Below, piece by piece: positions 25,608 to 38,417 of a stretch of 64,000 nucleotides of DNA. Source of the DNA: a phage. The translations under genes and the position numbers were made by a program. The DNA is taken from assembly GCA_025677605.1 (NCBI GenBank), contig GCA_025677605.1_4110.1, one strand, 5' to 3'. The stretch's first letter is position 1. The number at the start of each line of letters is the position of its first letter. The notes under the pieces are model-generated. The model was not told where the DNA came from. It ran no database searches and worked only from the letters and a program-made list of their open reading frames with translations.

Positions 25608-25709
25608 GTACGATTCTCCTTAGATTTCTCATATAGTACATCAGTACTGAAAGGGTGTCAAGGGTTTTCTTTTTTGATTAAATATAGTATAATGAATAAA
25701 GGAGGAATT
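25608..25709. promoter_or_regulatory. divergent promoter region between the two paralog arrays
   Basis: minus-strand TTGACA-17-TACTAT and plus-strand ATATAGTATAAT + AAAGGAGGA. Confidence 0.55.
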
Positions 25710-26606
25710 ATGTTACCTTTTGTTAGAATGTTTAAGTACGGGAATGTAGGTCCATTACCTGGCCCAAATGGTGGAGTACGAACACCATTTACTACAACAC
25801 CCGTACCTTCAGCACGAAATAACTTTGGTTATACGTATGATGCGGAAAGTAATATTGCTTATATATTTGGTGGTATACAGAATGCGGTGCAGACGGATAA
25901 TCAGTTATGGAGTTTTAATTTAACTACAAGAACGTGGTCACAATTAGCCAATGCACCTGTATCTACATTTGGTAGTGCGTTATGTGCTTATCAGGGAAAA
26001 ATATATTTGTTTGGTGGTTCAGGTAATAGTAGTAATAATTTTTATGTATATAATATAAGTACAAATACATGGATTCTGAACACTAACAGTATTGGGAAGC
26101 CTAGTCAACTGGCGTATAGTAAGATGATTACTGCTGGGGATAAGATATATTTGTGGGGTTCGCCTACTAATAATTCGTTATACAGTTATACTCCAAGTAC
26201 TAATACATGGTCATCATTAGGTACAAGTGATGGAACAAATAACAATGGAGGTGGTGATATGTGTACGGATGGTACTTACATATATATTACTGGTCAAGGT
26301 ACTAGTACTGCACAAAAATATCATATACAAAGTGCGGTGTGGTCTAACATAGCACCAGTTGGTGGTAATAACCCTAGTAAAATATGTTACAGTACATATG
26401 ATAAAAATATATATGCAGTGTCGTATGGTGCATTAAATTTATTGAGATACGATGCAGAAGAAGACATATGGATTCCCTTAGCGGTTAATACTACTTTGAG
26501 TAGTAGTACTGGTGCGTTATTTGGTTCTAAGAATAGTGCTGAGATATTTTATGTACTTGGTTTTGACAATGGCACTCGTGTTAATACGCAGTATGTTTTT
26601 AAATAA
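25710..26606 (+). CDS. MLPFVRM-leader beta-propeller paralog 1 (298 aa; Kelch-like GG/Y/W repeats)
   Basis: start set at ATG after AAAGGAGGA; repeated IYLFGG / IYLWGS blades. Confidence 0.6.
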   Translation: MLPFVRMFKYGNVGPLPGPNGGVRTPFTTTPVPSARNNFGYTYDAESNIAYIFGGIQNAVQTDNQLWSFNLTTRTWSQLANAPVSTFGSALCAYQGKIYLFGGSGNSSNNFYVYNISTNTWILNTNSIGKPSQLAYSKMITAGDKIYLWGSPTNNSLYSYTPSTNTWSSLGTSDGTNNNGGGDMCTDGTYIYITGQGTSTAQKYHIQSAVWSNIAPVGGNNPSKICYSTYDKNIYAVSYGALNLLRYDAEEDIWIPLAVNTTLSSSTGALFGSKNSAEIFYVLGFDNGTRVNTQYVFK

Positions 26607-26618
26607 TTTGGAGGAATT

Positions 26619-35453: not shown

Positions 35454-38387
35454 ATGATAAATTCGATTAAAGCGGTTGGGAATTCCGTATATATACTTAA
35501 AGATTCCGATTTATATGCAATGGACAACTATTGCAGTACAAAGAACTTATCTCTGGTTCTTTCCGATGTAACATATTTTGATGCCAGTCCGTGTGGTTGT
35601 GTTGCTGTTAAAAAAGATAACTCAGTATGGTATTGTGGTAAATCTCTAAACTCCCTTGAAGATAACCTTGAGACGATATTCATTGATATTAGTGATGATT
35701 TTTCCAATTTCGATATTACAAAAGGTAAGATTTACAAAACATATAATGGTATGTTCTTCTTAGATACAGACAAAGGTATTCTATATGCTCGTGGTCATAA
35801 CCGCAATGGTGAACTGATGATGGGAACGGGAACATATAATAAATTTTATCCAACTTTCAAAAAAACGTTAGCAACTGATGTAAAGACTTTTCTTGGAGCA
35901 GGGGAAGCTACTGTATATTATTTAAGTACTGATGGTAATACATATGGGGCTGGTTATAATTCAAATGAATTTTCTTTTAACCAAAATAAAATAAATTCCG
36001 GTCCAGTAACATCACCAACTAAATTATCATTGAGATATAATGACTTATACGTAAAACCATATGGAATTATGTACACATACCTAACAGATAGAGTTGTTTT
36101 TCTTGGTAATAATAAGAACAGACAATTCCCAACAGAGACAGTAGGGGAATTGCGTAATGTTCTACAATTCACATTCACTCCATTCCCATTCTATAAGAAT
36201 TTAAGTACTTCACCATATGATACAGCATTTATATACTGTGATAAAGATTATAACTTCTATGGTACTGGTATTATTTGTGATAATTTTGTTCGTGGATTAA
36301 AGAAGTTACCAAACTATAATTCAAATAAAGTAGTAAAAAATATTACTTCTTTATGTAATAATAGAAATGCTATATTCGTTACTGATGGCACTGATGTTTT
36401 TTATGTAGGATTATTAAACGAAACATACAAAGATACGTTCACTAAAATTGATTTCAGTGATACATCTTCCGTAGCAGTCTATAAGTCCAATAGTACATCT
36501 ACTTCTTTTGTTCTTAATAGTGCTAACAACGATATCTCATATAATACTTTTGTAGAGAATAGTACTTATCCAATTAAAGATAGTAAAGATGTGTATTTCA
36601 GTGCTAATACAAAAGATGGTAAATCATCTTTTAAAATATCATATGAAAATAAAGCTTATTATTATGGTGATCCAGCAATAATAGGAATGGATGGTACACC
36701 ATCTAAATCGTGGATTGAATGTACTGATATCTTTAAGAAAGTTAGAGTTGTATATAACGATCTCTTGCACTCCAAATATAATTTAACCAAAAGTGGTGTT
36801 CAAGTTCTATTACCACGTGGTCACATATATTCAATTGGTAGTAGCCTAAATGGTGATATTGGTGTCAACTCCCATAAGTATGATGGAAAACAAGTTCTTA
36901 AGTTCAATCACTTAGTGAAAACAAATGCACTAAATGCTTTATATATGAACAGTACTGATGTGTATTCATATTATATTGACAGAAACAATCACATTTACAT
37001 TAGTGGTGATAGTTCGTGGATTGATGATTCAATACCTACATACACCGAATATACCAAGCTACCAATTGATGATAAATCATATGATACATTCTTGTGTGCT
37101 AAAAATAAATCAATGTTCTTGAAACTAGGTAAAGATTTATATGTACTAGGTGATGTAAGTGATGGTGAAGGTGGTATTAAGCCTGGTGTTTATAGAACTC
37201 CATCTAAAGTGGATTTACCTGATGGTTTAACATGTGATGACATTCAACTATTTGACAAAGGAACATCAACCCCGTTCATGTATTTCATGACAACTAAAGG
37301 TGTTTTCTATGGTTCAGGTAAGTTTCCGGCGGGGACTAGTGGTGTTAAAGATGAACAAGATTTAACATCATTTACGAAGTTACCATTGACATTACCATCT
37401 GGTCTTGAAGTGAAAGATGTTCTTGAATTGAACTCATCATCCAAAACATTACTAATGATTACTAATACCAAATCAGTATATTTCTGTGGTTCTAGTGAAC
37501 ATATAGTTGATCCAACCAGTTCTAATGTTGTTCTTAATTGGACTGATAAAGATACTTATGATATTCCTGTCACTGACTTCGTAATAAATGATTTTCCAGA
37601 TAACATATACTTCTGTGGAATGAAAGGAATATCTACACCGTCTATTACAGTTACACCAGCGAATGCAAGCGGGTATGAGTTAACAAAAGTACAATACGTA
37701 CCAAACCCTACTGGTATACTCCCATCCTCAAGATGTCCTTATGATGCTAGTACTGATAAATTTGATATCCCTTACTTATCATTGAATAGTATTTGTGAAT
37801 TGGACTTAGAATACACAGTAACTAACAGGGATGGAACAACAATTACCAAGACTTATTCAAAAGGATTTAATGAATTGTTCTTAAGTGTTTCTGACATGAA
37901 AGCAACTGTAGGTGATACTGTTACATTAGAACCGAAATTCTATATGACTACAAGTTATCAATTAAACGCATTTAATGAATGTAAAGGTGGTATATTGAAA
38001 ACTATTGGCGATGTTGTTAATATTAAATTTAACAAAGGTGTATATAGTGGTAGCTCAGGGAAAATCGATTGGGTTAGTACTGATACAGGATGTTATGATT
38101 TTACTGGCACAGCATCTAAAGATGGTTCATACGCAACGAACTTAGTTTCGTATTATAAAGATTATAATATACAACTAAGGACTATTGAAAACGTAAAAGC
38201 CATTTCTCGTGAAGAACTTGAAAAGATTATGGAAAAAGAAGAGTTTGATGCATTACCGGATGAGGTGAAAGATTCTTCCAGTACTGCTAATATTTCTTAT
38301 ACTAAAGATTTTGATCAAGTAATCATGATTTCTGCTAAATCATTGTTCAATACAATATTAGACACTTTACACATAAAACACAAATAA
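35454..38387 (+). CDS. large RCC1-like repeat protein (about 977 aa) without MLPFVRM leader
   Basis: track ORF 35397..38387; likely start at ATG 35454 after GAGGAT; RNGELMMGTG / NGDIGVNSH repeats; long C-terminal extension. Confidence 0.55.
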   Translation: MINSIKAVGNSVYILKDSDLYAMDNYCSTKNLSLVLSDVTYFDASPCGCVAVKKDNSVWYCGKSLNSLEDNLETIFIDISDDFSNFDITKGKIYKTYNGMFFLDTDKGILYARGHNRNGELMMGTGTYNKFYPTFKKTLATDVKTFLGAGEATVYYLSTDGNTYGAGYNSNEFSFNQNKINSGPVTSPTKLSLRYNDLYVKPYGIMYTYLTDRVVFLGNNKNRQFPTETVGELRNVLQFTFTPFPFYKNLSTSPYDTAFIYCDKDYNFYGTGIICDNFVRGLKKLPNYNSNKVVKNITSLCNNRNAIFVTDGTDVFYVGLLNETYKDTFTKIDFSDTSSVAVYKSNSTSTSFVLNSANNDISYNTFVENSTYPIKDSKDVYFSANTKDGKSSFKISYENKAYYYGDPAIIGMDGTPSKSWIECTDIFKKVRVVYNDLLHSKYNLTKSGVQVLLPRGHIYSIGSSLNGDIGVNSHKYDGKQVLKFNHLVKTNALNALYMNSTDVYSYYIDRNNHIYISGDSSWIDDSIPTYTEYTKLPIDDKSYDTFLCAKNKSMFLKLGKDLYVLGDVSDGEGGIKPGVYRTPSKVDLPDGLTCDDIQLFDKGTSTPFMYFMTTKGVFYGSGKFPAGTSGVKDEQDLTSFTKLPLTLPSGLEVKDVLELNSSSKTLLMITNTKSVYFCGSSEHIVDPTSSNVVLNWTDKDTYDIPVTDFVINDFPDNIYFCGMKGISTPSITVTPANASGYELTKVQYVPNPTGILPSSRCPYDASTDKFDIPYLSLNSICELDLEYTVTNRDGTTITKTYSKGFNELFLSVSDMKATVGDTVTLEPKFYMTTSYQLNAFNECKGGILKTIGDVVNIKFNKGVYSGSSGKIDWVSTDTGCYDFTGTASKDGSYATNLVSYYKDYNIQLRTIENVKAISREELEKIMEKEEFDALPDEVKDSSSTANISYTKDFDQVIMISAKSLFNTILDTLHIKHK

Positions 38388-38389
38388 CA

Positions 38390-38417
38390 AAAAGCCCACT
38401 TGATGTGGGCTTTTTTA
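38390..38417. terminator. bidirectional intrinsic terminator between convergent genes
   Basis: AAAAAGCCCACTTGATGTGGGCTTTTTT, A-run and T-run flanking a GC stem. Confidence 0.7.

Follow-up and report, generated by a model that had tools for sequence, protein, structure and literature searches.

The whole stretch of 64,000 nucleotides analysed here (contig GCA_025677605.1_4110.1 of GenBank assembly GCA_025677605.1), which I will call the window, carries on its plus strand an array of genes (25710-38387), eight of which, g1 to g8, begin with almost the same 12 residues and then run into different beta-propeller bodies, one Kelch and seven RCC1-like. The array is probably a hypervariable set of leader-tagged virion proteins, the leader serving as an address to the virion that works regardless of fold and is carried by binding modules that recombination shuffles. 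The observations that carry this reading are the pattern of conservation in the leader, selection on it at the level of the peptide, the enrichment of leader proteins in virion proteomes, and breakpoints that fall at a cassette repeated between the genes. The pattern itself stands, with statistics that leave no ambiguity, and the kind of explanation first offered for it was right. The original prediction, made from the letters of the DNA alone, had counted ten genes (nine and a longer tenth); the number comes to nine, because there are eight leader genes and one long leaderless gene, g9. Two of the nine are split between reading frames.

The window is DNA of an Asteriusvirus jumbo coliphage (like 121Q, PBECO4 and phAPEC6, and Rak2-like). 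When positions 25608-38417 were compared with GenBank phages by megablast, every match was to a jumbo phage of the Asteriusvirus type that infects E. coli or Salmonella (121Q, PBECO4, phAPEC6, G17, slurp01, A4), and no GenBank phage record reached 80% coverage of the region. The closest match, phage A4, is 98% identical across the 3' two-thirds.

The leader follows the consensus M-[LI]-P-F-x-R-[MIL]-Φ-x-Y-G-N, where Φ stands for a hydrophobic residue. Translated in six frames, the window contains the pattern M[LI]PF[VI].[MLI] exactly eight times, each time at the start of an array gene. In an alignment of paralogues and orthologues, 10 of the 12 leader positions are invariant (M7 nearly so), as against just 19-27% identity among the bodies, and the predicted sharing of a leader by eight genes with diverged bodies survives this alignment. 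Across 11 Asteriusvirus genomes there are 129 leader genes, 8-16 per genome, whose bodies fall into 31 types when clustered at 70% identity or more. All 11 have only the types of g3 and g5 in common.

The leader is also found outside Asteriusvirus. It stands at the head of 14 tandem genes in Salmonella phage Munch (as MIPF[ATSP][RK][IML]..Y[GA]N), 10 genes in Erwinia phage Hallingskeid, nine in Pectobacterium phage CBB (CBB_548-554, 536 and 537) and gp1 and gp2 of GAP32, a spread over at least five jumbo-phage lineages that include two named genera. The bodies that follow it belong to at least five unrelated families: RCC1, Kelch, Laminin_G_3 (CBB_548 and 551, as annotated), phrog_6011 and phrog_4474. 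The family label of phrog_6011 is "virion structural protein", and members are so annotated in several phage groups; in the phrog_4474 protein 121Q_243, the N-terminal region runs into a run of glycines.

Wider searches added little. No chain in the PDB matched the leader in a sequence search with the leader profile, and PDB sequence searches with g6, g9 and CBB_549 found no phage structure. When g6 was compared with 5.8 billion proteins, just nine matches were returned, since a word index does not reach paralogues this divergent, although two leader-bearing metagenomic proteins surfaced among the results. A profile of the 45-residue N-termini gave 11 candidates, none of them new, and an exact-DNA scan of IMG/VR for the Shine-Dalgarno sequence (SD) plus leader found 121Q itself only. 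A different common N-terminus, MLEM[LM]NL[GS], is seen on three tandem RCC1-like genes of the rV5-like phage A5-4 (Vequintavirinae; locus L017, 5007-8505), and a phrog_6011-type "virion structural protein" homologue in phage 4MG (locus L019, 3965-4615) starts with MEEMLLVGG. These body families may thus carry another tag, specific to that lineage.

Codon usage was examined in 73 Asteriusvirus leaders and in 35 leaders from elsewhere. Among the latter, P3 is invariant through three codons (CCA 21, CCG 6, CCT 8) and F4 through two (TTT 27, TTC 8); R6 is kept in 31 of 35 through AGA, AGG and CGT, Y10 in 34 of 35 (TAT 18, TAC 16), and G11 in 30 of 35 through four codons. Within Asteriusvirus, Y10 is encoded by TAC in 42 cases and TAT in 30, G11 by GGG in 52 and GGA in 18, with the amino acids almost unchanged. 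Judged by these codon patterns, the leader is under purifying selection at the peptide level. Codons 2, 3, 4 and 6 are, within Asteriusvirus, nearly invariant at synonymous positions as well (TTA 72/73, CCT 72/73, TTT 72/73 and AGA 71/73), and the near fixation of their nucleotides therefore indicates homogenisation in addition.

The association with virions comes from the published proteomes of relatives. Mass spectrometry (MS) of phAPEC6 placed gp003, 005, 006, 007, 009, 010, 549 and 551 among 62 virion-associated proteins (Table 1 of PMC7247149); that of CBB detected CBB_536, 537, 548, 549, 551, 552 and 553; and the RCC1-like gp1 of GAP32 is a virion protein by the same method (PMC5259590 for both). 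All of these map to leader-bearing genes. Seven of the nine CBB leader proteins were detected, compared with 55 of 554 proteins overall (hypergeometric p = 2e-6), with 2-8 unique peptides and 9.5-51% coverage, and 8 of the 11 annotated leader proteins of phAPEC6, compared with 62 of 551 overall (p = 2e-6). In phage JP4, three leader proteins were detected, by one peptide each. These proteomes are in line with the original proposal, in which virion-associated proteins are marked by a leader that stays constant while the body varies.

Comparison of the arrays of related phages places the exchange of modules at their boundaries. The megablast blocks that the window shares with A4, PBECO4, 121Q and Turkey5 start at a hairpin and stop just past the next leader (for example 28950-30316, 30199-31564 and 31464-32842), so that adjacent blocks overlap by a repeat of about 100 bp extending from the hairpin through codon 12. 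The blocks are non-collinear in PBECO4 and Turkey5. In A4, exactly the body of g4 is replaced (29059-30203) and g8 is missing (34138-35356), and gene content of the array varies across the 11 Asteriusvirus genomes, near-identical phages included. Within one genome, leaders on different body types resemble each other more closely (0.886) than do such leaders taken from separate genomes (0.858; reached in 0 of 500 permutations), and orthologous leaders compared between genomes (0.898) are barely more alike than those within one. Among the genome-specific variants of the tag are V-R-M-L-E and A-R-M-V-K. Read from the alignments, the cassette and leader are shown to be recombination breakpoints.

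The cassette itself consists of a terminator hairpin with its T-run, a promoter-like motif and an SD. The promoter-like 15-mer TAAATATAGTATAAT occurs exactly six times in the window, upstream of g1, g3, g4, g5, g6 and g7; with up to two mismatches there are eight matches, as compared to 1.3 expected, a number reached in 0 of 100 shuffles, and the hairpin with up to three mismatches occurs five times against 0.01 expected. The prediction of six cassettes and a degenerate seventh, the one before g8, was correct. The hairpins fold as terminators (minimum free energy, MFE, about -16 to -18 kcal/mol; z about -3), and the depositors of G17 annotated the corresponding hairpins as such.

The promoter motif, TTAAATATAGTATAAT, has a perfect -10 (TATAAT) and no usable -35, the weakness of which keeps a consensus scan from calling promoters at the cassettes. 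In all the loci sampled from Asteriusvirus, Munch and Hallingskeid, with 10-14 kb of flanking DNA, the motif never lies outside an array; GAP32 has a single match, just downstream of gp1, and CBB none. Munch, Hallingskeid, GAP32 and CBB all keep the TAAATA core. In CBB and GAP32 a putative late promoter, ATAAATA, precedes structural genes and was tied by the CBB authors to a gp55-like sigma factor, and the resemblance of the core to this sequence makes late expression of the array plausible. The T4 late promoter TATAAATA is found nowhere on the plus strand of the window and once on the minus strand, and the PA5oct transcriptome paper offered no usable late-promoter motif.

The minimum-energy fold of the cassette RNA (31483-31527, with the same arrangement at other cassettes) pairs the U-tract that follows the terminator with the SD region AAAGGAGGAAA over 12 bp, leaving the promoter in the loop (MFE -16.4, z -3.2). 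On this model, read-through RNA might be translationally masked and promoter-initiated RNA not. Comparable masking of the SD in read-through RNA occurs in genes e and soc of T4. The pairing could also be an incidental match between a U-run and a purine-run.

The bodies were compared with Pfam, PHROG and structure databases, and the Kelch and RCC1-like propellers of the original prediction agree with hidden Markov model searches, the RCC1-like ones also with structural searches. Kelch models match the body of g1 (PF24681 at 87.8 bits, cut-off 50; Kelch_6 at 71.5, cut-off 25.3; Kelch_1 at 62.6, cut-off 20.1). Matches to RCC1_2 or RCC1 exceed the cut-off in g2 (29.6 against 22), g3 (28.0), g6 (47.1 against 21.7) and, once their frames are repaired, g4 (24.8 against 21.7) and g8 (29.0/29.5), and the RCC1 repeat score of g5 lies exactly at it (22.0 against 22 bits). 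These six proteins also match the RCC1-like domain PF25390 below its cut-off, which is the sole Pfam match of g9, likewise below the cut-off. No Pfam family matched g7. The PHROG family 4219 ("regulator of chromosome condensation") was matched by all of the seven window proteins submitted except g1, with g7 at 2.4e-14.

Structure models were built from the nine window paralogues only, and their confidence is moderate to low because of it. The AlphaFold2 (AF2) model of g6 has a predicted TM score (pTM) of 0.72, and its top Foldseek matches are UVR8, RCC1 and the RCC1-like domain of HERC2 (E 1e-19, TM 0.67-0.70). The model of g7 is of low confidence (predicted local distance difference test, pLDDT, 55), with an insert of about 105 residues poorly modelled, but RCC1-like propellers are matched at E 8e-9. 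In the g6 model residues 4-18 have pLDDT below 50, lack secondary structure and lie outside the propeller. I considered the leader as the "velcro" strand that closes the propeller and rejected this, since the leader is disordered in the model, is joined to the body by a proline-rich linker and occurs also on bodies that are not propellers.

The propellers are proteins of 32-49 kDa with isoelectric points (pI) of 5.2-8.3, about 40% of whose residues are serine, threonine, asparagine or glycine. No Pfam family of fibres was found among the array proteins, nor are they annotated as fibres, spikes or receptor-binding proteins (RBPs) in relatives. Matches to PHROG "tail protein" families are weak (E 6e-7 to 9e-4) and overlap the RCC1 repeats. 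The possibility raised with the original prediction, that these are the ordinary annotated tail fibres of close relatives, does not hold: the labels given in relatives' records are "regulator of chromosome condensation", "putative DNA condensation protein", "HERC1", "Kelch" and "hypothetical", and some are structural protein.

Taken together, each gene may be viewed as an autonomous module. A terminator hairpin and T-run would insulate it from the gene upstream; its dedicated promoter, TTAAATATAGTATAAT, with a TAAATA core like the putative late promoter of the group, would be followed by a strong SD; and the protein would consist of the 12-residue tag, a short proline-rich linker and a variable globular binding domain (here Kelch or RCC1-like). 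During assembly, the tag would dock whichever body follows it onto one common acceptor and so bring it into the virion. The repeat of about 100 bp at the gene boundaries would provide the substrate for homologous recombination, by which modules could be added, deleted, replaced and reordered.

Several points weigh against this interpretation. Detection by MS is weak (1-5 peptides in phAPEC6 and one in JP4), and the phAPEC6 list includes non-structural enzymes (topoisomerase, a RecA-like protein, thymidylate synthase), so that abundant late proteins could be contaminants. The promoter is only putatively a late one, and its perfect sigma-70 -10 could equally serve the host polymerase. The near invariance of codons 2, 3, 4 and 6 within Asteriusvirus fits gene conversion or a constraint at the nucleotide level equally well. 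Finally, GAP32, reportedly without hairs, has leader proteins in its virion (PMC5259590). The low peptide counts and the enzymes in the same lists are what one would see if the array encoded cytoplasmic late or host-takeover proteins that contaminate virion preparations, with a leader used for binding a chaperone or as a degradation or regulatory signal. I find this quite unlikely, since three independent proteomes agree, coverage in CBB reaches 41-51% (CBB_536 and CBB_549), the enrichment is significant at p ~2e-6 in each of two phages, and the phrog_6011 proteins have their structural annotation in several phage groups. It is very unlikely that the leader has no function as a peptide, its first 36 coding bases being instead the translation-initiation region of a mobile expression and recombination cassette, made uniform by gene conversion. 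Such an origin would account for the synonymous near invariance of the four codons, for breakpoints at the end of the leader and for leader variants specific to a genome; it does not account for the varied codons by which other lineages keep P3, R6, Y10 and G11, for the synonymous variation of Y10 and G11 within Asteriusvirus itself, for the degenerate leader of g8, which retains L, P and V through CTA, CCA and GTG, or for the many genes that have the leader and no cassette (g2, and many genes of Munch, Hallingskeid and CBB with an SD only). As for the role implied by the database names, regulation of chromosome condensation in the manner of RCC1 or condensation of the DNA to order the packaged genome, it is annotated in many records, is the label of PHROG 4219 and was the subject of speculation in PMC7247149. 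It is nonetheless extremely unlikely: the name is inherited from the fold alone, the proteins are near-neutral or acidic, Kelch, LamG and other non-chromatin bodies use the same leader and array position, and content differs between near-identical phages, unexpected for a core packaging function. Bacteria are not known to have a Ran-like partner.

A closer competitor retains the tag for virions at its core and differs from the preferred explanation only in location and role. The tagged proteins would be internal capsid cargo, loaded by the leader onto the scaffold or inner body and either ejected with the DNA as binders or inhibitors of host defence or forming the inner body. The internal proteins of T4 are a precedent, being diverse and sharing just a short N-terminal capsid targeting sequence (CTS; PMC3012670), and a 12-residue tag on monomeric globular proteins resembles a cargo signal more than a fibre anchor. 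The inner body of phAPEC6 (91 x 18 nm) has no assigned composition, and its authors proposed RCC1-like proteins (PMC7247149). The reportedly hairless GAP32 virion with its leader proteins fits as well, as does the RCC1-like fold, which is that of beta-lactamase-inhibitor protein II, a tight protein inhibitor (going by the InterPro name), and the fast turnover among near-identical phages fits an arms race. On the other hand, the leader is unlike the T4 CTS and has no conserved protease site; stable propellers of this size and pI are unlike small, basic proteins that associate with DNA; bodies of the Kelch, RCC1 and LamG kinds, rich in serine, threonine, asparagine and glycine, are typical of surface adhesins; and the abundance in MS seems too low for an inner body of about 19 MDa (a mass estimated from the published dimensions). 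As a rival explanation I judge internal cargo rather unlikely. The original prediction had offered both possibilities, modules for host recognition and proteins targeted to the capsid and injected, and the evidence here favours the one over the other only slightly. Within the preferred reading, that of tagged virion proteins, I lean weakly toward display on the outside, as alternative binding modules on hair-like fibres or other surface sites, and consider an internal location possible but somewhat doubtful. Ligand- and carbohydrate-binding folds, the amino acid composition and the pI favour outside display, and CBB and phAPEC6 bear unexplained hair-like fibres, those of CBB being tipped by "tiny terminal globular structures" (PMC5259590).

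The modules of the window vary in how complete they are. The first (g1, 25710-26606; 298 aa, leader MLPFVRMFKYGN, phrog_12615 at 1.5e-41) is preceded by a variant cassette (25661-25709) that has the T-run, the promoter-like TAAATATAGTATAAT and the SD AAAGGAGGA and lacks the canonical GCCAGTAC hairpin. The second (g2, 26619-27761; 380 aa, leader MLPFVRMLEYGN) has no cassette of its own, only an SD, and begins 12 nt after g1. A complete cassette, with terminator hairpin AGCCAGTACTCTGTACTGGCT, T-run, promoter-like motif and SD (27768-27833), precedes g3 (27834-28943; 369 aa), and others precede the frame-split g4 (cassette 28950-29014, gene 29015-30194), g5 (cassette 30202-30265, gene 30266-31456; 396 aa, leader MLPFVRMFDYGN), g6 (cassette 31464-31527, gene 31528-32703; 391 aa, leader MLPFVRMLDYGN, seven blades) and g7 (cassette 32715-32778, gene 32779-34131; 450 aa, leader MLPFVRMLEYGN again, on a divergent RCC1-like body). 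The cassette before g8 (34141-34226) keeps its hairpin, GCCAGTACTTCAAGTGCTGGC, and T-run intact, but its promoter motif has decayed, and g8 itself (34227-35385) is frame-split, with the degenerate leader MLPFVQMFVYGK. All lie on the plus strand.

The leaderless g9 (35451-38387) has no cassette upstream, only an SD (GAGGAT) before its ATG, and encodes 978 aa with two RCC1-like regions and a C-terminal part without assignment. A strong bidirectional terminator (38389-38415; MFE -16.5 kcal/mol, z -5.8) closes the array between convergent genes. In A4 the counterpart of g9 is annotated as two overlapping coding sequences (9847-10791 and 10778-12784 in locus L001) despite DNA about 98% identical, and the arrays of 121Q, PBECO4 and G17 end without an annotated long leaderless gene.

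In both split genes, g4 and g8, the body lies in the +1 frame with respect to the leader. The leader open reading frame (ORF) of g4 (29015-29194) stops after 59 codons, at a TAG (29192-29194) just past a run of six T (29183-29188), ending AUC UUU UUU AGA UAG, and the body continues to 30194; the zone of the shift is 29160-29194. The split is identical in the window and in all five related copies fetched (loci of this type include L005 at 18887, L006 at 10817 and L008 at 11333-12511); five further full-length records were judged by a 1180-nt match alone, and identity throughout is about 97%. In Turkey5 the gene is intact, because the G is missing in TTTTTTA[G]ATAG. Over the 332 downstream codons, dN/dS (the ratio of non-synonymous to synonymous change) is 0.15-0.36, even among split copies. 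Substitutions are few where the two frames overlap; up to 29155 they are synonymous when read in the leader frame, and from 29189 on they are synonymous when read in the +1 frame. The alternative of an insertion at GGA-C-GGA (29144) has paralogue similarity as its only basis and is less favoured, since the substitutions and the Turkey5 allele point to the T6-AGA-TAG site, albeit with few variable sites.

In g8, the leader ORF has 52 codons, and dropping one C at GAC[C]GGG (~34335) restores ...KDGTLYGRGSQEFGQLG... in a single frame. Its nearest relatives, of the 121Q_235/234 type (69% identical in amino acids), match only from residue 73/74 onward, and those inspected are interrupted ahead of it. 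None of the genomes inspected has this final leader gene uninterrupted, the position varying between codon 44, 52 and 74, and its leader and promoter are degenerate (MLPFGRIITSSK in 121Q; loci of this type are L002 25802-26954 and L005 23889-25041). 121Q and PBECO4 share the same interruption, yet 28 synonymous changes and only 6 non-synonymous ones separate their 298-codon bodies (dN/dS 0.06). An intact body ORF of this type was not found in G17 and phAPEC6, where the longest pieces are 85 or 118 aa.

The low dN/dS of the frame-split bodies implies that they are translated in some way. The route may be a +1 frameshift or internal initiation that yields an isoform without the tag, or else the decay is very recent. 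The g4 type is a candidate for a programmed +1 frameshift or for a tag-less isoform from an internal start.

Genes on the minus strand flank the array on both sides. Directly upstream and divergent from it are five tandem small ORFs of 61-75 aa (24382-25607), at whose position 121Q, Turkey5 and other relatives have up to about 17 small ORFs of similar size; the terminal repeat in the CBB record ends, by synteny, about 460 bp from the array on this same side. On the other side (38418-41206) lies a convergent gene for a 183-aa protein with a lipoprotein-like signal (…FIMTGC), in the position of CBB_547 (annotated DUF1190), and beyond it tandem small ORFs of 106-152 aa, hydrophobic and membrane-protein-like. 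A4, 121Q, G17 and CBB keep the synteny of this side, and their records label the genes putative membrane proteins. GC skew, considered from 20000 to 38000, takes positive values between about 22 and 38 kb and negative values outside that interval, which spans both the plus-strand array and the minus-strand block of small ORFs (~22.9 to 25.6 kb). Two records of relatives have ends in the array: that of A4 begins within it, and that of phAPEC6, entered as "circular", carries a two-gene unit (types T27 and T07) at both ends (locus L004 6179-8536 and L003 3-2360), with identical N-terminal sequences where compared. The repeated unit may be either a true tandem duplication or an assembly overlap left untrimmed within the repeated array.

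The multiplicity of "RCC1/DNA condensation" genes is already in print, and the array as such is not new. The CBB paper gives several RCC1-like genes for 121Q and PBECO4 (PMC5259590), the phAPEC6 paper counts 11 RCC1-like proteins and speculates that they order DNA or form an inner body (PMC7247149), and a 2026 paper on fEgEco12 still speaks of "chromosome-condensation proteins" and notes differences between close relatives. The statement accompanying the original prediction, that characterised phages offered no such array, is wrong in view of these annotated and discussed sets. In the searchable literature, the CBB and fEgEco12 papers included, there is no mention of the shared N-terminus or of the cassette; queries on the leader strings and on RCC1 with phage virions found the tag undescribed; and the papers on Sharanji and UE-S1 do not discuss the array genes. 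What appears to be undescribed is the tag with its wide distribution and its link to virion proteomes, together with the shuffling mediated by cassettes.

Extended to Rak2-like jumbo phages in general (Asteriusvirus, Mimasvirus, Munch-like and Erwinia phages), the proposal becomes that a universal 12-residue address, independent of fold, loads a large library of modules shuffled by recombination, at least 31 types in 11 genomes, into or onto the virion, that a second and unrelated tag, M-x-E-M-L-x-x-G, does so in Vequintavirinae for these same families of bodies, and that the g4 and 121Q_235/234 types are not pseudogenes but are expressed through a conserved +1 change. I advance this broader version only tentatively. 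If the tag is a portable virion address, any protein might be displayed on jumbo phages or packaged into them, as the CTS permits for T4. The array would then be a prime candidate either for determinants of host range (the unexplained "hairs" that CBB and phAPEC6 bear) or for an arsenal against host defences delivered by injection, at a locus that is among the most variable of Asteriusvirus and related jumbo phages, which are under development for therapy. The misleading label of DNA condensation or regulator of chromosome condensation would give way to a model that can be tested, and the split genes, with bodies under purifying selection, are possible cases of programmed +1 frameshifting among the structural genes of phages.

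Comparison with known systems puts the array in context. It shares with RCC1-like (PF00415, PF13540, PF25390) and Kelch (PF01344, PF24681) propellers the repeat signatures and the seven-bladed or Kelch fold, but its members are phage-encoded, single-domain and bear a viral N-terminal tag, with no sign of a function in guanine-nucleotide exchange or chromatin. Large myoviruses such as CBA120 and K64-1/RaK2 carry sets of RBPs, tailspikes with a conserved N-terminal anchor. Like those, the array places alternative binding modules side by side, joins a constant N-terminus to a variable remainder and turns over between relatives; unlike those, which have folded anchors of about 100 or more residues on trimeric beta-helices or fibres, it has 12 residues on predicted monomeric propellers, and its members are not annotated as fibres and have no clear fibre match.

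The CTS of T4 reads MKTYQEFIAE, and the prohead protease of that phage recognises the motif (L/I)-x-E. The analogy with T4 internal proteins in the original prediction is apt as a way of working: IPI, IPII, IPIII and Alt are likewise unrelated, fast-evolving virion proteins with a short, conserved N-terminal peptide that is independent of fold (PMC3012670), and the internal protein locus of T-even phages is described as highly polymorphic between close relatives, as here (Repoila et al. 1994, as cited in PMC3012670). The analogy does not extend to sequence. The leader has no similarity to the CTS, and the (L/I)-x-E motif is not conserved at the end of the tag in the 73 Asteriusvirus and 35 other leaders, where residue 9 is E in 8 of 73 (K in 37, D in 14; K, D or N in 60) and in 5 of 35, respectively. 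The proteins differ also in being propellers of 32-49 kDa, in arrays of 8-16 genes and at least 31 types, in another phage lineage, and packaging inside the capsid is putative here.

The nearest likeness in the DNA is to the promoter(early)-stem-loop (PeSL) cassettes of T4-type phages (PMC2839356, PMC4122927), in which a stem-loop terminator and a promoter recur at the edges of the non-essential genes of a hyperplastic region, relatives differ by insertions, deletions and replacements that break within the cassette, and modules are transcriptionally insulated. In the array, unlike PeSLs, the terminator precedes the promoter, the stem is GCCAGTAC/GTACTGGC rather than GGGG/CCCC, the promoter has no sigma-70 -35 and a late-like TAAATA core rather than an early consensus, and the repeat extends through the SD and the first 12 codons. 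With the array, the idea of regulatory cassettes as handles for recombination would apply outside T4-type phages as well, and to a cassette of which coding sequence is a part.

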